A stretch of DNA of 14,631 nucleotides, taken from IMG/VR virus record IMGVR_UViG_2671180727_000007, positions 1-14,631 of that record; one strand, given 5' to 3'. This document shows positions 836 to 14,631 of this stretch, one piece after another (position 1 is the stretch's first letter; the number at the start of each line of letters is the position of its first letter). The notes under the pieces were generated by a model, which did not search any database, was not told the origin of the DNA, and saw only the letters and a program-made list of their open reading frames with translations. Origin of the DNA: a virus. Taxonomy: Duplodnaviria; Heunggongvirae; Uroviricota; Caudoviricetes. The translations under genes and the position numbers were made by a program.

Positions 836-949
836 TTTATTTTTCAAAGATAACTAATTTTTGTCACCATTGGTTTAGTAAACGTTAACGAACCAGACGA
901 TGCCAGACACCTTTACAGAGAACAGATGCCCGCCAATTGGCGGGCATCA

Positions 950-1513
950 TTATGCGCATTTCGCAATATCTTTGCGGCGTTTAATCAGTTTCTCCGCAAT
1001 TTGCTCTATTTCGTTGAAATCTTTCGAGACGCTGTTTCGAAGCGCCAGATTCCATTTACTCAAAGTTCGGGCATTTTGGACAATTTGATCGCCCTCTTTA
1101 AGTCTTCCGTTATTCATGAGCCATTCAGCCACATCAGCCCAATCCCAGAGAGGAGACTGGCCTTTTATGCGTTGTACAGGGCAAGGGAAGTCGCCGCTTC
1201 CGCGCTTACCGTCTTTGAGCAACGCCACTGCCTGGCGAGACAGGTCTGTCAGTTCCGCGATATCGCTTAAGCCCACAAGAGCCGAGTCGACGGATTCAAC
1301 AATTGCACCGATACCGGCTGATTCAATATTGTCGACCGCAGATGCGATAGCTGCATCAAGTGATTGTGCTTCGCGGTCAAATTCTACATAGACGGAGTTT
1401 CCATATGCGCAAATTAGCGCATCGTCACAGCCGTTTTGGTACAGCGCGTCTTCCAGTCCTTCCGTCTCATACGATACGCCTGAGAGCGTCAGAGTGAAGT
1501 TATAAAGCGCCAT
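950..1513 (-). CDS. Hypothetical protein (187 aa); C-terminal region looks helix-turn-helix-like; second gene of a two-gene operon
   Basis: ORF with ATG at 1511..1513 preceded by AGGAAA 4-5 nt upstream; the track's 199-aa form starts at a TTG 12 codons earlier. No family recognised from sequence. Confidence 0.6.
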   Translation of the reverse strand: MALYNFTLTLSGVSYETEGLEDALYQNGCDDALICAYGNSVYVEFDREAQSLDAAIASAVDNIESAGIGAIVESVDSALVGLSDIAELTDLSRQAVALLKDGKRGSGDFPCPVQRIKGQSPLWDWADVAEWLMNNGRLKEGDQIVQNARTLSKWNLALRNSVSKDFNEIEQIAEKLIKRRKDIAKCA

Positions 1514-1573: not shown

Positions 1574-1798
1574 TCATTTACAACGATCAACCATTCGTTT
1601 GATCTGTTTGGCATGGTTTTCGGGATTACCCGGAGTCGACCATACGCTCATTTGGTGAGTTTTGTGTTCACCTTCTGGATTACCGCATCGCAGTCTGCAA
1701 AAACAATGTGCAGCACCACCAGCTGCTACCCAGATCCAGCCTTTACTTAATGCATAGTCAATGGCTGCTTGAATATGCTTATTCGGATGTTGCTTCAT
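1574..1798 (-). CDS. Hypothetical small Cys/His-rich protein (74 aa); first gene of the operon
   Basis: ATG at 1796..1798 with GGAGG SD (complement of 1802..1806) and a consensus promoter immediately upstream; contains an HCFCRLRCG cluster. Family not recognised. Confidence 0.6.
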   Translation of the reverse strand: MKQHPNKHIQAAIDYALSKGWIWVAAGGAAHCFCRLRCGNPEGEHKTHQMSVWSTPGNPENHAKQIKRMVDRCK

Positions 1799-1815
1799 TC
1801 GCCTCCGATAATAGT

Positions 1816-1845
1816 ATTCTATTCACAGTGTTGACATCTGTCAAC
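1816..1845 (-). promoter_or_regulatory. Near-consensus sigma70 promoter (TTGACA-17 bp-TAGAAT) for the minus-strand operon, with the -35 embedded in a 16-bp perfect palindrome GTTGACA-TC-TGTCAAC (1830..1845)
   Basis: -35 is the complement of 1839..1844, -10 the complement of 1816..1821, spacer 17 bp; the palindrome overlapping the -35 is operator-like. Confidence 0.65.
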
Positions 1846-2010
1846 GGCGACTGAATTTCATCCGTTCATGCCACACCCCCATCCATCTCATGTATGTGAC
1901 CTAAAGATGGTCAGCACAGCTTACCAAAATAAGACAACTAATTATCTTCGGTGATCTCAATATTTTCCCCTGAACAAAGTTGACATGACGCCATAAACCC
2001 GTTCTCTGTT

Positions 2011-2019
2011 TGATATAAT
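2011..2019 (+). promoter_or_regulatory. Extended -10 promoter element TGaTATAAT, candidate promoter of the plus-strand recombination operon
   Basis: TG at 2011..2012 and TATAAT at 2014..2019; the -35 at 17-bp spacing is poor (CCATAA), and a TTGACA at 1980..1985 is too far upstream to pair. Confidence 0.4.
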
Positions 2020-2052
2020 TGATACAGATTTTATAAGTAGGAACCTATTAGA

Positions 2053-2484
2053 GTGAACACTGATATTTTTTCTAAAATCATGGCCGATCTGGAGTTCGAC
2101 CGCGACAACCTTGAGGAAGTATGGCGTAAACAGCCACGGCTTTTAATGGAGTATGGGTCAAAACTAGCGCAGGCAGATCGAGATGTCGCAGAGGCAAAAC
2201 TTAACCTTGAAGCTGTTGAAGCAAAGCTATACGACACAGAGCGTAAGAACTTGAGTATGAACGGCATTAAGTTCAACGAGTCTGTACTGGACGCTAAGGT
2301 TAAAACAAACCCACAGTATCTGTCTAAACGGCAGAAGTTGGATGAAGCACGGCACATCGCAGACATATACAAACATGCTGTCGCCGCCTTTTCGCATCGC
2401 CGAGACATGATCGTTCAGGCGTCAAAGATGGCCATCGTTGAATTAGAGCGATTAGGCTCTGAACGCTTTATTACTCCCCGTTGA
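2053..2484 (+). CDS. Hypothetical coiled-coil protein (143 aa), possibly a UvsY-like recombination mediator
   Basis: GTG start at 2053 with AGGAA 9 nt upstream (an internal ATG at 2080 has no SD). Size, predicted helical character and position next to gp32-like and UvsX-like genes; sequence resemblance to T4 UvsY is loose and from memory only. Confidence 0.5.
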   Translation: MNTDIFSKIMADLEFDRDNLEEVWRKQPRLLMEYGSKLAQADRDVAEAKLNLEAVEAKLYDTERKNLSMNGIKFNESVLDAKVKTNPQYLSKRQKLDEARHIADIYKHAVAAFSHRRDMIVQASKMAIVELERLGSERFITPR

Positions 2485-2601: not shown

Positions 2602-3630
2602 ATGTCTAAGACATTACTTGATTTGCTTAACAAAACTCGTGAAGACATTGCCGCCAAACGTGGCAACAACGTTGATCTGACTCGCTTAAAAGACGGCGTC
2701 AACTATATCCGCATCTTCCCGAATAAAGACGACCCAAACGGTAAGTTCTTCCAGACTTTCGGTATGCACTACGTTAAGTATCAGAACGAGGAAGGTAAAG
2801 AAGCAACCAACGCTTATATTTGTGAGCAACATACTCACGGTCGCGCTTGTCAGCTATGCGAAATGGTTATGGAAGGTCGCGCTCGTCACAAGGGTAACAA
2901 AGCAATGGAAGAACGCATCGGTCAAATGCGTGCCACTCCTCGCTACCTGGTCAACGGCATTCTTTCTGCTCGTGAGGATTTCGCAGATGCTGAGAAATGC
3001 CAGTTAATCGAGCTGCCGTCTACTGTATTCGATGATATCTGCAAAGCAATCACCGAAGACATCGCTGATGATATCGGCAATCCACTGAGCAAAGAGGAAG
3101 GCTACGCATTCCTGATTAAACGTACTGGCTCTGGTCGCGATACCAAATATGACGTCTCGCCTAAGCGTAAAGTCTACAAAGGCGATATCGAAGATAAATT
3201 CTGGAACACCCAGCATGATCTGATCGCATACGCAAATCAGGCTGATGAAACTCGTCTTCTGTCGACAGTTCGCACTATGGGTCGTCTGATTGGCATCGCT
3301 GCACCAACTGCCGCAGCATCTGCACCAGCAATTTCCTCAACCGCGAAAACATCGGCTGCGGCACTACCTGGATTTGGCTCTGTCACTGGTCATACGGAGG
3401 GTGCGACTGCTGTAGCAACCGCTCACACCCCAGCTTCTGAACCAACCAGTCTGGTTGATGAAGAAATCCTCCGTGCCGTTGAAACTGAATTTAAACCAGA
3501 AGCAAGTTCCGCTGCCGTTGCCGTATCAGTCAAAGAGTCTGAAGCAGTCGCAGCGACATCTGTAGCAACCGCATCTGCGACGGAAGATGAAGGTCTGGAT
3601 GACCTACTGAGAGAGCTGGACTCTCTGTAA
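2602..3630 (+). CDS. gp32-like single-stranded DNA-binding protein with zinc-binding motif and acidic C-terminal tail
   Basis: GGAG SD 7 nt upstream of ATG. Cys74-X8-Cys83-X2-Cys86 with nearby His residues (CEQHTHGRACQLC) resembles the T4 gp32 Zn subdomain; C-terminus TEDEGLDDLLRELDSL is acidic as in SSBs; residues ~231-330 are Ala/Ser/Thr-rich low complexity. Confidence 0.7.
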   Translation: MSKTLLDLLNKTREDIAAKRGNNVDLTRLKDGVNYIRIFPNKDDPNGKFFQTFGMHYVKYQNEEGKEATNAYICEQHTHGRACQLCEMVMEGRARHKGNKAMEERIGQMRATPRYLVNGILSAREDFADAEKCQLIELPSTVFDDICKAITEDIADDIGNPLSKEEGYAFLIKRTGSGRDTKYDVSPKRKVYKGDIEDKFWNTQHDLIAYANQADETRLLSTVRTMGRLIGIAAPTAAASAPAISSTAKTSAAALPGFGSVTGHTEGATAVATAHTPASEPTSLVDEEILRAVETEFKPEASSAAVAVSVKESEAVAATSVATASATEDEGLDDLLRELDSL

Positions 3631-3646
3631 TCCCATTACGTGACCA

Positions 3647-3675
3647 GTAAGGCGTCTACGGACGCCTTACTTTTT
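3647..3675 (+). terminator. Rho-independent terminator after the SSB gene
   Basis: Stem GTAAGGCGTC (3647..3656), loop TACG, GACGCCTTAC (3661..3670), followed by TTTTT. Confidence 0.7.
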
Positions 3676-3690
3676 GGAAGGAATGTACCG

Positions 3691-4635
3691 GTGAATTATC
3701 TCTTCGTAGATGGCAATAGCCTGGGTTATTACCACCAACAATCTGACAAATTGCACAACGGCGAAATGGAAGTACAGGCTGCTTTCGGCTTTGTTAAGAA
3801 CGTCCGTCGTTATGCCTCCATCCTCCATGCCCGACCTATGATTCTTTGGGATGGATTTAGTGACAAGCGTCGCGACTTTTACCCGGACTACAAAGCAAAT
3901 CGCGACGACGATCCTGATATGAAAAAGATGAAGGAAGGCTTTGCTGTCCAGAAGCCATACATCCTCAAAATGATGACCGCGCTTGGTGTTAACCAAATCA
4001 TTGCAAAAGATGCAGAAGCGGATGATCTGGCCGGGCTGCTGGTATCCCGCATGGCACCGCAGCCAACCGTTGAACACATCTATCTGTTAACAGGCGATAG
4101 CGACTGGCTTCAGTTAGTTCGTGAAAACGTAAGCTGGGTAAGCCTGCGTGAAGACGCCAAAAACAAGCAGGTTAATTTTGAGCAATTTGCGGAGCTGACA
4201 GGATTCGCCACGCCTCGCGCATTTTTGGAAGCAAAAGCATTACAAGGCGATAACTCGGACAACATTAGCGGTGTTGGAGGCATTGGTGCTGGCGGTGCGA
4301 AAGAGCTGCTGCATGAATGGGGAAGTGTCGCAACGATGGTACGCGGCATCAACGACGGCTCAATCGTGGTTAATAAAGGGCGTCATAAGACCGCCTTCAA
4401 CAAACTAGCGAAGAATGCCTTCAACGAGAAAACAGGCTGTCGAATGCTCGAAGCGTTCAAGAGAAACATCACGCTAATGAACCTGATTGAGACGAAGTTT
4501 CCGCCTACCGAAATCGAAACAATCAAAGGCAATCGTGACGTGAAAGCATTCGAGCAAATGTGCTACGAGCTGAATTTCCGTTCGTTCCTTGAAGACCTTG
4601 AAGTGTTTGTTCTTCCATTCGAAAGGTATTGCTAA
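3691..4635 (+). CDS. 5'-3' exonuclease / flap endonuclease (T4 RNase H-like, FEN family)
   Basis: Motifs LFVDGNSL, RRDFYPDYKANR (cf. T4 RNase H RRDFAYYYKKNR), AEADDLAG, LLTGDSDW and an H3TH-like GVGGIGAGGA. GTG at 3691 with GGAAGG 9 nt upstream is preferred over the in-frame ATG at 3640, which lies inside the preceding terminator hairpin. Confidence 0.85.
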   Translation: MNYLFVDGNSLGYYHQQSDKLHNGEMEVQAAFGFVKNVRRYASILHARPMILWDGFSDKRRDFYPDYKANRDDDPDMKKMKEGFAVQKPYILKMMTALGVNQIIAKDAEADDLAGLLVSRMAPQPTVEHIYLLTGDSDWLQLVRENVSWVSLREDAKNKQVNFEQFAELTGFATPRAFLEAKALQGDNSDNISGVGGIGAGGAKELLHEWGSVATMVRGINDGSIVVNKGRHKTAFNKLAKNAFNEKTGCRMLEAFKRNITLMNLIETKFPPTEIETIKGNRDVKAFEQMCYELNFRSFLEDLEVFVLPFERYC

Positions 4636-4901
4636 TGCTTAAATCGATTATCAATGGCGCTACAACCACCCCTGCCCAACTAGCAAAAGAGATTGTCTTT
4701 TATCACGGTGAGTACGCTGTCATCGCACTGCCGTCAATTCTAGGCGCTGCCGGAATGAAAGCGACAGATCGCGAGTTTGGATTAGTCAGCGAGCAGGTCG
4801 TAAAAATCCTCGCTCGTGTATCCAGACTCCTTAACCACGATGCGATTGTATTCGATGAATCCGCCGCTTTAAAACGAATCAACGAAACAAAAGGAGCCTG
4901 A
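4635..4901 (+). CDS. Hypothetical protein (88 aa), translationally coupled to the exonuclease gene
   Basis: ATG overlaps the exonuclease stop (TAATG) with GAAAGG 8 nt upstream; ends 2 nt before the recombinase ATG. Confidence 0.5.
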   Translation: MLKSIINGATTTPAQLAKEIVFYHGEYAVIALPSILGAAGMKATDREFGLVSEQVVKILARVSRLLNHDAIVFDESAALKRINETKGA

Positions 4902-4903
4902 TC

Positions 4904-5977
4904 ATGGCAAAAGGAAAATCCGCACTGGCACTTGCTCTGAAAAAGAAAATCGGTAGCAACGACGAAATTCAGAAAGTAACTCATTGGATTGATACAGGCT
5001 TTCCACCGTTAAACAAAGCTATTTCTGGTCGTTACGATGGCGGCTTCCCATGTGGTCGTATCGTCGAAGTATTCGGTCCTCCAAGTGCAGGGAAAACGTT
5101 CCTTGCAACAGCAGCGATGATCTCCGCTCAAAAACAAGATGGTCTGGCGGTATTCCTCGATCATGAAAACAGTTTTGACGTTGGCCTGGCTGTCGCCAAT
5201 GGCCTGAACGCAGATGAGGATGACGGTCAGTGGGTATACAAGCAGCCAGATACCTTCGAAGACTCTGTAGAGTTGATCGGCACAATACTTAAATTGGTTC
5301 GTGATGAAGAGCTTATCCCCGAATCAGCACCAATCTGTATCGTGGCTGACTCTCTTGCGTCTATGGTTCCGAACTCCAAAGCCGAGAAGTTCGAAAAGAT
5401 GGCTGAAGGCACTGCCAAAGACAAAGATCAGCTAAACATGAACGACAATACGGCACTGGCTCGTGCGACGAGTGCGAACTTCCCTACTCTGGCTTTGTGG
5501 GCACGCAAATACAACGCCTGCATCATCTTCTTGAATCAGGTTCGCACAAAAATCGGTGTAATGTTTGGCGACCCTACTACGTCGCCAGGTGGAGATTCAC
5601 CGAAGTTCTACGCTTCTGTACGTATCCGTCTTGGTGCATCGGTGATGAAGGATGGTAAAGAGAAGATCGGCCAGGACGTAGGCGCAGAATGCATCAAAAA
5701 CAAAGTTGCACCACCGTATGGCAAATGCACCTGGAAATTCTACTTCGATCCTACTCGTGGCCTCGACGTTATCGAATCGCTCGTCGAGTACATGCTGGAA
5801 GAAGGATACCTGCCAAAGAACGCCAGCGGGCGAGTTGAAATTGGTGACAAGAAATACACCAAATCGCAGATCGTCGAGATGTATCGGGAGAAGCCACTGG
5901 CTGAAATCATTGCGGCTTTGCAGGCAATCGACGACCGAAGAGCAAAAGACAACCCCACCGAGTCAGTAGAAGAGTAA
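4904..5977 (+). CDS. RecA/UvsX-family recombinase
   Basis: Walker A GPPSAGKT (RecA: GPESSGKT), AVFLDHENSFD, Walker B-like ICIVADSLASM; GGAG SD 7 nt upstream of ATG. Confidence 0.8.
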   Translation: MAKGKSALALALKKKIGSNDEIQKVTHWIDTGFPPLNKAISGRYDGGFPCGRIVEVFGPPSAGKTFLATAAMISAQKQDGLAVFLDHENSFDVGLAVANGLNADEDDGQWVYKQPDTFEDSVELIGTILKLVRDEELIPESAPICIVADSLASMVPNSKAEKFEKMAEGTAKDKDQLNMNDNTALARATSANFPTLALWARKYNACIIFLNQVRTKIGVMFGDPTTSPGGDSPKFYASVRIRLGASVMKDGKEKIGQDVGAECIKNKVAPPYGKCTWKFYFDPTRGLDVIESLVEYMLEEGYLPKNASGRVEIGDKKYTKSQIVEMYREKPLAEIIAALQAIDDRRAKDNPTESVEE

Positions 5978-5982
5978 ACACA

Positions 5983-6006
5983 AGGCGTCCACAGGACGCC
6001 TTTTTT
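5983..6006 (+). terminator. Rho-independent terminator after the recombinase gene
   Basis: Stem AGGCGTCC (5983..5990), loop ACA, GGACGCCT (5994..6001), then TTTTTT. Confidence 0.75.
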
Positions 6007-6011
6007 ATCTC

Positions 6012-6040
6012 TTGAAAATATATAAGCACTTACTTATTAT
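6012..6040 (+). promoter_or_regulatory. Sigma70-like promoter TTGAAA-17 bp-TATTAT upstream of the membrane/SPFH operon
   Basis: -35 at 6012..6017, -10 at 6035..6040, 30 bp upstream of the ATG at 6070. Confidence 0.5.
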
Positions 6041-6069
6041 TTTCGCATAACAACCACATAGGAAAACAC

Positions 6070-6270
6070 ATGATCAAAATCTATCTATTGGCAGTAGCCA
6101 CAGGCCTTTCAGTGGCTCTCATCTACGGTTTACTGGTTCCGTCGCTGATTTCTACCAAGAGTGATTTAGCCGTCATGTTTGGAGTTATCGTTGGTTTTGG
6201 TGCTCCTGTAATCGGTCTTATTGCTGGTCGTAAGTTTATCAACTCACTAATCAAAGCAAAGGGGAAATAA
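6070..6270 (+). CDS. Small membrane protein with two predicted TM helices (66 aa)
   Basis: Two hydrophobic stretches (LLAVATGLSVALIYGLLV; VMFGVIVGFGAPVIGLIAG); AGGAAA SD; ends 3 nt before the SPFH gene. Confidence 0.55.
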   Translation: MIKIYLLAVATGLSVALIYGLLVPSLISTKSDLAVMFGVIVGFGAPVIGLIAGRKFINSLIKAKGK

Positions 6271-11003: not shown

Positions 11004-11648
11004 ATGGATCTAAAACGCACGCGCTGGGTTCGTCGTCTTGAGGACGGCTCCTACACTATCGAATCAAATTCCAACCTGAATAAGCAGAAGTTACTTTGTG
11101 ATATCTGCGGTATAGCGGCGAAGTGCCCGATCTACGAAACCAGAATTAAACTTGATAAGGCTGGTGTGAACTTTCATTTGAATAGTTGTATCAGGTACGT
11201 TCCATTGCTCGCATTTCGTAAACCGATCATCGGATTGGATGCGCCCTACTTCAACACACTCCGTTCAGGGGTAACGTGGCGAGATCGTTTATCACCAGAC
11301 AAGCTGATTTGCCTCGTATCCGCAGACACAGGGAAAATCATCCGTTTTGGGAAAGTAGACAAGGTTTACTCAGGCCCAGTTGACGAGATGTTGCGGAAAC
11401 ACAGCCGGTTTAATCACCTCTGCATGGGTGGTGAGAAAATCGAGAAGGTTGAAGAAGTGATCCGCAAATCCTACGGACACTTCCTGACCAAAGATAGCCT
11501 GCTCACTGCAATCTACATCAGACATGTAAAACGTGAGTTCGACCTTGAATACCATAGCGAAGAAGAACTGAACCTTGTCGATCCACGTCCTAAAGCTGGC
11601 GTCATAAGCATAAATGCAGCGCGTAAAAAGCCCACTGACGCGCTGTAA
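11004..11648 (+). CDS. Hypothetical protein (214 aa) with an N-terminal Cys cluster (CDICGIAAKC)
   Basis: Long ORF, weak SD; no family recognised. Confidence 0.5.
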   Translation: MDLKRTRWVRRLEDGSYTIESNSNLNKQKLLCDICGIAAKCPIYETRIKLDKAGVNFHLNSCIRYVPLLAFRKPIIGLDAPYFNTLRSGVTWRDRLSPDKLICLVSADTGKIIRFGKVDKVYSGPVDEMLRKHSRFNHLCMGGEKIEKVEEVIRKSYGHFLTKDSLLTAIYIRHVKREFDLEYHSEEELNLVDPRPKAGVISINAARKKPTDAL

Positions 11649-11903: not shown

Positions 11904-12989
11904 ATGACTTTGCCATACGGCGTCATTTCTGACTGCCACTACCACAAATGGGATGCGTTCTCCACGACGAACGCTGAGGGGCTTAACTCCAGACTTGAAA
12001 TACAGTTGGAAGCAACGAAAGAAGCAGCCATCGCCATGAAGAAGGCCGGTTGTAAGTACATGTTGGTTGCCGGTGATACATTTCACGTCCGAGGAACTGT
12101 GTCCCCTTCTGTTTTGCATTACGTAACTGAAACGTACAAGTGGATTATCAACGAGCTTGATCTGACAGTAGTAATGCTGGCCGGTAATCACGATCTTGAA
12201 ACCAACGATTCAGTATATAGCGCCAACGCAGCAGCATCGCTGAGTTCTATCGGCGTGGTAATCGTATGTGGCAAGCGCCCACACTCAATAAAAATTGGCG
12301 ATGTGACTGTCCACCTGATTAGCTGGCGTAACAATCATGCGGAGCTTATCAGCGATCTGAAAGCATTACGTAAGAGCGTAGAAGGTGATAATCATGACGT
12401 TGTTATCCATACATCCATTAACAAAGCCATTCCAACAATGCCTGACGTCGGTATCGATGCGCAGGAGTTAAAGGATATCGGCTTTCGTCTCGTGCTTAGT
12501 GGGCATTACCACAACCACAAAGAGGTCATTCCTGGAGTTATCAGTGTCGGTGCACTGACTCATCAAAATTGGGGAGATGTTGGATCTCTGGCTGGCTACA
12601 TGATCGTAAACCCGGACGGCAGTTTCAGTCACTACGAAACCAGTGCGCCTAAATTCATTAACCTGGAAGATGATGTTGCTGATGACCAAATTCGCGGCAA
12701 CTACGTGCGTTTCCGCGCCGTAATTGAGAACGATGAAGAAGGCATTAAGTACCAGAACATCCTCAAAACAATGGGTGCAAAAGGTGTCGTGTGCAACTTC
12801 ATCCGTAAGTCATCAATGATGGAAGGTACAGCCAGCACAACTGAAACCAGCAAAATCGATAGCCTGGGAGAGTCGGTATCTGCTTATTGCAAGATTGTCC
12901 ACGATACTGACGGCGGATTTGATCTGAGCAAATTGGATATTTTGTGTCAGGAAATCCTCACCGAAGCGGAGAGTTCGGAGGCTGTGTGA
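11904..12989 (+). CDS. sbcD: Mre11/SbcD-like calcineurin-type phosphoesterase nuclease (T4 gp47-like)
   Basis: Metallophosphatase motifs in order: SDCHYH (D-x-H), AGDTFH (GD), LAGNHD (GNHD), SGHYHNH (GH-x-H); preceded by the AAGGAAAAACACATG initiation context. Confidence 0.85.
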   Translation: MTLPYGVISDCHYHKWDAFSTTNAEGLNSRLEIQLEATKEAAIAMKKAGCKYMLVAGDTFHVRGTVSPSVLHYVTETYKWIINELDLTVVMLAGNHDLETNDSVYSANAAASLSSIGVVIVCGKRPHSIKIGDVTVHLISWRNNHAELISDLKALRKSVEGDNHDVVIHTSINKAIPTMPDVGIDAQELKDIGFRLVLSGHYHNHKEVIPGVISVGALTHQNWGDVGSLAGYMIVNPDGSFSHYETSAPKFINLEDDVADDQIRGNYVRFRAVIENDEEGIKYQNILKTMGAKGVVCNFIRKSSMMEGTASTTETSKIDSLGESVSAYCKIVHDTDGGFDLSKLDILCQEILTEAESSEAV

Positions 12990-13218
12990 AGCAAAGTCGT
13001 TATGGGAGCTTTCGAGACTTTGCCATCACGATGAAAAGACTTGAACGAGGCCAGACGGTGATGTTTCACAAGCCCTACCCGCCACAAGGAAATCCCGTAG
13101 CGTTTTATCTTGGAAGGTTAACAAGAAAAGGCGTATTGAGGCGCAGATCCTTCCCGGCGCATACGGAGTTCAGATTGAAAGAAGGCCAAAAGCTAACACG
13201 CGGTATCAGAGGTGTTAT

Positions 13219-13222
<4 letters not shown>
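12986..13222 (+). CDS. Small, highly basic hypothetical protein (78 aa) coupled between the sbcD-like and sbcC-like genes
   Basis: GTG at 12986 overlaps the sbcD stop (GTGA) with GGAGG 5 nt upstream; its stop overlaps the sbcC ATG (ATGA). About 18 Lys/Arg against 4 Asp/Glu. The track's 92-aa form starts inside sbcD. Confidence 0.5.

Positions 13223-14631
<1,409 letters not shown>

Follow-up and report, generated by a model that had tools for sequence, protein, structure and literature searches.

The short open reading frame between the SbcD/Mre11-like and SbcC/Rad50-like genes of the 14,631-nt stretch of DNA analysed here (the window) is, as judged from its conservation among relatives, a genuine protein-coding gene of SSU5/Cyrano-type phage-plasmids (Table 1). 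Its product is predicted to be a winged-helix-like protein, and we tentatively propose that it is a dispensable, fast-evolving DNA-binding modulator of the SbcCD-like nuclease, a reading that we favour while placing it somewhat below an even chance. The frame is already present in databases as a hypothetical protein and as a PHROG of unknown function, and T4 offers a precedent for small ORFs lying between the Mre11-like and Rad50-like genes of a phage; the new elements are a corrected gene model, a predicted fold, the pattern of single gain and dispensability, and the cassette-like hypervariability. No study of the small ORF, or of an accessory protein of a phage SbcCD, was found in the literature. 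Bacterial and phage Mre11–Rad50 (SbcCD) enzymes are regarded as two-protein machines. If a DNA-binding partner co-translated with the nuclease were confirmed, it would be the first accessory factor of the bacterial type, and could explain how the phage-plasmid keeps the nuclease off its own DNA.

Sequence identity places the window in an E. coli SSU5/Cyrano-like phage-plasmid. Its sbcD–sbcC region is 99.7% identical to that of Escherichia phage Cyrano (the pLF82 phage-plasmid), 99–100% identical to that of many ~110-kb IncFIB E. coli plasmids, and ~77% identical to that of Salmonella phage SSU5. In existing annotations the sbcD-like gene is labelled SbcD-like in Cyrano and exonuclease subunit 1 in SSU5, and the sbcC-like gene of the window is also assigned to SMC_N and SbcC-like families (Pfam, PHROG). 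Upstream lies a T4-like replication and recombination module with genes for a gp32-like ssDNA-binding protein, a 5'-3' exonuclease/FEN and a RecA/UvsX-like recombinase; RepA is also found in the neighbourhood, and sbcD, the small ORF and sbcC come after the module. This context makes the sbcDC pair part of a recombination set in the style of T4. In the window replicon the Rad50-like ATPase is truncated by an IS100 insertion that cuts sbcC after codon 440 of 638; up to position 14538 the gene matches its intact NZ_CP124417 counterpart with 100% identity, and it diverges beyond. The same insertion is found in sbcC of a set of ~100-kb E. coli plasmids, for example NZ_CP025870; istA is annotated in the plasmids with this insertion.

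Table 1. Coordinates of the sbcD–sbcC junction in the window and of the features compared with it
Sequence	Feature	Positions	Strand	Evidence or remark
Window	gp32-like ssDNA-binding protein gene	2602–3630		T4-like module (2602–5977)
Window	5'-3' exonuclease/FEN gene	3640–4635		T4-like module
Window	RecA/UvsX-like recombinase gene	4904–5977		T4-like module
Window	214-aa protein gene	11004–11648		5' of sbcD
Window	sbcD/Mre11-like metallophosphoesterase gene, 361 aa	11904–12989	+	Pfam Metallophos E 8e-10; phrog_100 SbcD-like E 3e-93
Window	GGAGG Shine-Dalgarno-like motif, within last sbcD codons, 4 nt 5' of small gene's GTG	12977–12981	+	sequence
Window	Small gene, 78 codons + stop; basic, predicted winged-helix-like protein	12986–13222	+	phrog_37951
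Window	AGAGGTG Shine-Dalgarno-like motif for sbcC, within small gene's C-terminal Arg-Gly codons	13208–13214	+	sequence
Window	sbcC/Rad50-like ATPase gene, codons 1–440 of 638, truncated here	13219–14538	+	AAA_23 E 7e-17; phrog_77 E 4e-97
Window	IS100 (IS21-family) end, inserted in sbcC	14539–14631	.	matches IS100 copies; homology to intact phage-plasmids ends at 14538
L005 (NZ_CP032196)	Direct sbcD–sbcC overlap	2776–2779		
L006	Direct sbcD–sbcC overlap	3179–3182		
L026–L028	Direct sbcD–sbcC overlap	4571		
L008 (Y. pestis pMT1)	Small ORF	1787–2011		
L014	Divergent allele	6001–6219		
L015	Divergent allele	4001–4219		
L111	Divergent allele	842–1078		
L001	247-aa protein gene	4864–5607		overlaps sbcC end by 11 nt
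L021 (T4, NC_000866)	46.2 (87 aa) and 46.1 (68 aa, DUF5487)	1982–2432	-	between genes 47 and 46
L030 (Castellaniella MAG contig)	sbcD–sbcC junction with two other small ORFs	4523–5142		

The preliminary description had proposed that the small gene is translationally coupled to both neighbours, and its starts and stops do overlap or nearly abut theirs at both ends. The GTG start (12986–12988) overlaps the sbcD stop (TGA, 12987–12989; ...GCT GTG TGA) behind the GGAGG motif described earlier, while the TGA stop (13220–13222) overlaps the sbcC start (ATG, 13219–13221) as ATGA. The product has the length and basic composition first ascribed to it, with 78 residues, of which 18 are Lys or Arg and 4 Asp or Glu, and a pI of 11.7. 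A junction start codon, GTG or ATG, overlaps the sbcD stop in all alleles (GTGA, TAGTG or ATGA), and GGAG or GGAGG is retained at this site in all ORF-bearing loci examined. At the other end, the small-gene stop in most alleles shares bases with the sbcC ATG and otherwise falls 8–18 nt short of it (pMT1 and loci L014–L019). Since the start overlaps the sbcD stop and the stop overlaps the sbcC start or lies no more than 18 nt before it, ribosomes ending sbcD could re-initiate on the small gene and then on sbcC. The Shine-Dalgarno-like motif for sbcC has counterparts in other alleles, where AGAGGC, CGAGGC or GAGAGG stands 5–7 nt ahead of the sbcC ATG, and this function probably accounts for the conserved ...RG.. 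tail of the small protein, which is a low-confidence region in the predicted structure. The three genes would share one transcript: no promoter-like or terminator-like sites were found on the + strand between 11600 and 13500, and no Rfam family matched between 12500 and 13700. Protein length ranges from 71 to 78 aa over the alleles. The Y. pestis pMT1 ORF is shorter by four codons at its 3' end (74 aa), so that 8 nt separate it from sbcC, and its RefSeq annotation begins at an upstream GTG.

Existing annotations of the family disagree on the start: RefSeq WP_032140380.1 is 92 aa, SSU5_074 (AFL47001.1) is 63 aa, other calls are 78 aa, and in Cyrano the gene is not called at all. The frame stays open 5' to the GTG at 12944 that gives the 92-aa RefSeq form, but in locus L014 it closes 12 nt ahead of the junction, and the extension lies within sbcD. 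The 63-aa form would begin at the ATG at 13028, yet the position of this Met varies (the residue in Klebsiella is Ile, with Met one residue earlier), and the residues ahead of it (FRDF/FWDF) are conserved at the protein level. The conserved junction start, together with the closure in L014, therefore supports the 78-aa gene model with 12986 as the conserved start. With this model, the inconsistent calls (92 aa, 63 aa or none) can be corrected across hundreds of Enterobacteriaceae plasmids of clinical origin, Y. pestis pMT1 among them.

A survey of 110 related loci from plasmids, GTDB genomes, IMG/VR and Logan assemblies bears directly on whether the frame encodes a protein. The preliminary description had asked for its conservation in related replicons and had suggested that frameshifts or stops beside conserved flanking genes would mark a spacer; instead, the ORF is intact, with the junction start codon, in 98 of 98 loci that have a 224–230-nt gap between sbcD and sbcC, without frameshifts or stops. 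These loci hold 35 protein versions, with identity down to ~38%. Over 15 distinct DNA versions there are no stops in the proposed frame, while the other five frames are nearly always stopped. Changes are concentrated at third positions (35, 28 and 63 of 69 sites are variable at codon positions 1, 2 and 3, respectively), Nei–Gojobori (NG86) dN/dS between alleles is 0.08–0.30 where dS is unsaturated, and pN/pS within most allele classes is 0.11–0.36. The most divergent alleles are still recognized as homologues by hhalign (probability 95%), and the fold prediction is confident and consistent. That the ORF is a non-coding spacer, or is open by chance, might be argued from its missing annotation in Cyrano, from the empty searches of Pfam (no hit at E ≤ 1) and NCBIfam (none at E ≤ 0.01), and from occasional plasmid copies disrupted by IS100 or by frameshifts at their ends (P0016, P0006, P0024). 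Against the conservation pattern, this explanation is extremely improbable and may be regarded as effectively refuted. Among protein clusters from plasmids, P0016 is a copy with IS100 inserted inside the gene, and P0006, P0003, P0024 and P0020 have frameshifted or extended C-termini; such copies are rare relative to hundreds of intact members.

Structure prediction depended on the depth of the alignment. An AF2 run on a shallow alignment (12 sequences of at least 69% identity) gave a pLDDT of 42 and was discarded, whereas adding alleles of 36–39% identity (18 sequences) rescued the prediction, with a pLDDT of 80.7 and a pTM of 0.68 for the best model and pLDDT values of 77–81 over the five models. 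The model comprises a helix (residues 6–20), a strand (25–28), a Pro-rich loop, a second helix (37–47) and a β-hairpin (51–55 and 59–64), followed by a poorly predicted C-terminal tail. With fair confidence, this predicted arrangement can be described as a minimal winged helix of order H1-β1-(Pro-rich loop for H2)-H3-β2-wing-β3. Residues conserved throughout the family are found in the core (L19, G22, V25, L42, L45, G49 and L51) and in the wing hairpin (R53, H59, E61, F62 and R63); the remaining surface varies yet keeps its positive charge.

In a Foldseek search of the PDB the top-ranked structure was eS10, a weak match (E 5e-3). An hhalign comparison with human eS10 gave a probability of 0.4%, so that the resemblance is at the level of the fold only. 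Foldseek against BFVD returned nothing at E ≤ 1e-3, and the sole hit of an hmmsearch of PDB sequences, Vipp1/IM30, was a chance match (E = 1). When set beside known winged-helix domains (the eS10/Plectin-S10 N-domain, ArsR, PadR, MarR, Z-alpha/Z-beta and SSV1 F-112), the small protein differs in that helix 2 is replaced by the Pro-rich loop (KPYPPxGNP), that it is a single domain lacking a dimerisation module, and that it has no sequence or profile match to any Pfam, NCBIfam or PDB winged-helix family. Because sequence-level matches are absent, we call the predicted fold winged-helix-like and place the protein outside any described winged-helix family (MarR, ArsR, PadR, S10_plectin and others). 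Nucleic-acid binding is plausible for such a protein, and the predicted fold and the basic charge of all alleles fit it; contacts would depend above all on charge, on helix 3 and on the wing.

The small protein matches phrog_37951, of unknown function, almost end to end (E 6.1e-39; residues 4–76 against profile positions 3–75 of 77). This PHROG, WP_032140380.1 and SSU5_074 are the same family at the same locus; the database entries give neither function nor fold, whereas the comparative evidence presented here favours a product of 78 aa. Homologues were sought in 5.8 billion protein clusters, in 1.84 billion representatives by profile, and in 50,697 phage genomes by tblastn (E ≤ 10). In these searches the family is confined to SSU5-like phage-plasmids of Enterobacterales, and every homologue whose context was examined sits between a Metallophos gene and an SMC_N gene. 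No paralogues were found by tblastn in the 50,697 phage genomes, where matches were to SSU5-like phages only, at one place per genome. The matches from outside the family in the profile search of the 1.84 billion representatives (P0026–P0028) were low-complexity noise.

The association of the three genes is one-sided: the small gene is always accompanied by sbcDC, but relatives in Klebsiella, Morganella and Xenorhabdus have sbcDC and lack the small gene. In these collinear, more distant relatives sbcD and sbcC overlap directly (ATGA or TAATG), bearing out the earlier remark that the nuclease and ATPase genes are normally adjacent, and SbcD (361 aa) and SbcC (638 aa) keep unchanged lengths. SbcD is 71% identical to that of the window in two Klebsiella plasmids without the gene and 57% identical in the Morganella and Xenorhabdus elements. 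Since sister lineages with SbcD and SbcC of the same length lack the small gene, the nuclease does not appear to need the small protein, and the gene is best described, on this comparison, as a clade-specific and dispensable addition. Parsimony would place a single insertion of the gene at the base of the clade in which SbcD shares 77% identity or more with that of the window. In GC content the small gene resembles its flanks or lies slightly below them, which is uninformative on its origin.

Within that clade the small gene evolves quite differently from its neighbours. Its dN is 3–10 times that of SbcD and SbcC, for which omega is 0.02–0.06 and 0.04–0.10, respectively. Between L014 and the window, SbcD is 98.9% and SbcC 92% identical, while the small protein is only 38–42% identical, depending on the alignment used; at the nucleotide level the identities are 92–100% for sbcD, 43–57% for the small gene and 72–92% for sbcC. 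The converse is seen between the window and L007, where similar small genes (dS 0.19) lie between diverged sbcD genes (dS 2.7). There are at least six allele classes, of which the IMG/VR loci L100–L105 are the most divergent; the divergent alleles (L014, L015, L100–L105 and L111) are 25–42% identical to that of the window, with flanking sbcD and sbcC genes that are either nearly identical or moderately diverged. Every allele encodes a strongly basic protein (pI 10.0–11.7). The pattern reads as cassette-like exchange under purifying selection, not as decay. After the single gain, the gene may have passed between lineages via recombination in its flanks.

A functional link to the nuclease is suggested by the exclusive linkage to sbcDC, by the coupling at both ends in all alleles, and by the predicted DNA-binding fold. 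The small protein would be co-produced with the SbcCD-like nuclease in replicative or lytic growth, and might modulate it, for example by aiding or restraining access to DNA ends or hairpins. Start–stop overlaps are, however, common in phage genomes and are no proof of complex formation, and we consider it only moderately likely that the protein is a subunit of the nuclease. The existence of relatives whose SbcD and SbcC do without it argues against an obligate subunit, as do the far faster evolution of its surface than of SbcD or SbcC and the exchange of the cassette independently of sbcD. Identity of 38% beside a 99%-identical SbcD would be unexpected for a tight interface with conserved partners. 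Unrelated small ORFs at the T4 and Castellaniella junctions may, by analogy, point the same way, with the junction tolerating insertions. A physical link to a Mre11–Rad50-type enzyme, if shown, would raise interest considerably.

Many of these observations would also be accounted for by an independent gene of a hyperplastic region, that is, a small basic nucleic-acid-binding protein unrelated to SbcCD that occupies a permissive junction and borrows the expression of the operon. Host takeover, anti-defence, exclusion or regulation of other genes would be its candidate jobs, and this reading is a serious possibility, only slightly less probable in our view than the one that we prefer. Presence/absence polymorphism among otherwise collinear relatives fits such a gene, as do the sharp drop of identity at the gene borders between the window and L014, the rapid evolution of the protein relative to its neighbours, and the unrelated small ORFs carried by T4 and Castellaniella at the same junction. 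The T4 gp46/gp47 complex has been studied as a two-protein enzyme, which counts in the same direction. On the other hand, the family was never found outside the sbcD–sbcC junction in any database searched, it matches no PADLOC or anti-defence family, it has no promoter or terminator of its own, and selection on it is purifying rather than diversifying. Even if unrelated to the nuclease, it would be a clean case of a small orphan gene inserted precisely between coupled genes, selected and cassette-swapped.

The T4 junction resembles that of the window in that 46.2 and 46.1 lie between gene 47 (SbcD-like) and gene 46 (SbcC-like) of a phage recombination module and have start and stop codons that overlap. 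It differs in having two ORFs instead of one, and in that their products are acidic whereas the small protein is strongly basic. No DUF5487 hit was obtained with the small protein in Pfam, and the sequences cannot be aligned by eye, so that position alone is shared. The sbcD–sbcC junction would thus repeatedly host small accessory genes. The Castellaniella contig, with an SbcD 33% identical to that of the window, has a 582-nt sbcD–sbcC gap; one of its two small ORFs encodes a hydrophobic protein of 79 aa, and the other a Cys-rich, zinc-finger-like protein of 127 aa.

Rather than acting on the nuclease, the small protein might bind RNA or DNA at its own junction and tune sbcC translation or operon expression, in the manner of T4 RegA. 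Its closest structural analogue, eS10, is an rRNA-binding winged helix, the small gene overlaps and encodes the sbcC ribosome-binding site, and winged-helix proteins are commonly regulators; a JGI record names one family member 'predicted DNA-binding transcriptional regulator', although this is an automatic name. We nevertheless regard autoregulation as quite improbable. The analysis detected neither a conserved operator-like repeat nor a conserved RNA structure, the Rfam search was empty, relatives express sbcDC without the small protein, and coupled regulators between two enzyme genes are unusual. Moreover, it is the junction sequence that is conserved and not the protein surface.

The modulator that we favour can be compared with the accessory partners of Mre11–Rad50 and SMC complexes (Nbs1/Xrs2, CtIP/Sae2, winged-helix kleisin/KITE subunits and Lamassu LmuC), with which it shares being encoded together with a Mre11/Rad50-type pair. 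Accessory subunits of SMC complexes usually bind the heads through winged-helix domains. A bolder version of the proposal is that the protein is a third component of a phage Mre11–Rad50 machine, a head- or DNA-binding adaptor functionally like the winged-helix kleisin/KITE subunits, that gates the action of the nuclease at particular DNA ends; it might, for instance, protect replication or packaging intermediates of the phage-plasmid itself while DNA of the host or of competitors is processed. The hypervariable alleles would then reflect an arms race over the DNA or host factor recognized. This version we consider unlikely. The small protein has no detected homology to any of the partners compared and is far smaller. 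The order effector–small gene–SMC does recall Lamassu, but SbcD and SbcC of the window are ordinary phage recombination-module genes, present without the small gene in sister lineages. PADLOC returned no family for the small protein or SbcD, and SbcC hits its LmuB and PbeC models via generic SMC-type ATPase similarity only.

Two further genes flank the locus. The gene for a 214-aa protein is conserved 5' of sbcD; the protein has no match in Pfam, NCBIfam or PADLOC and carries the Cyrano annotation 'ASCH RNA-binding domain'. On the 3' side, sbcC of intact relatives is followed by two uncharacterized genes, a RuvC/RNase H-like gene and nrdAB. A protein encoded directly downstream of sbcC in these relatives, 247 aa in L001, has no family match and varies between 238 and 298 aa among clades; its gene may belong to the same operon as sbcC.
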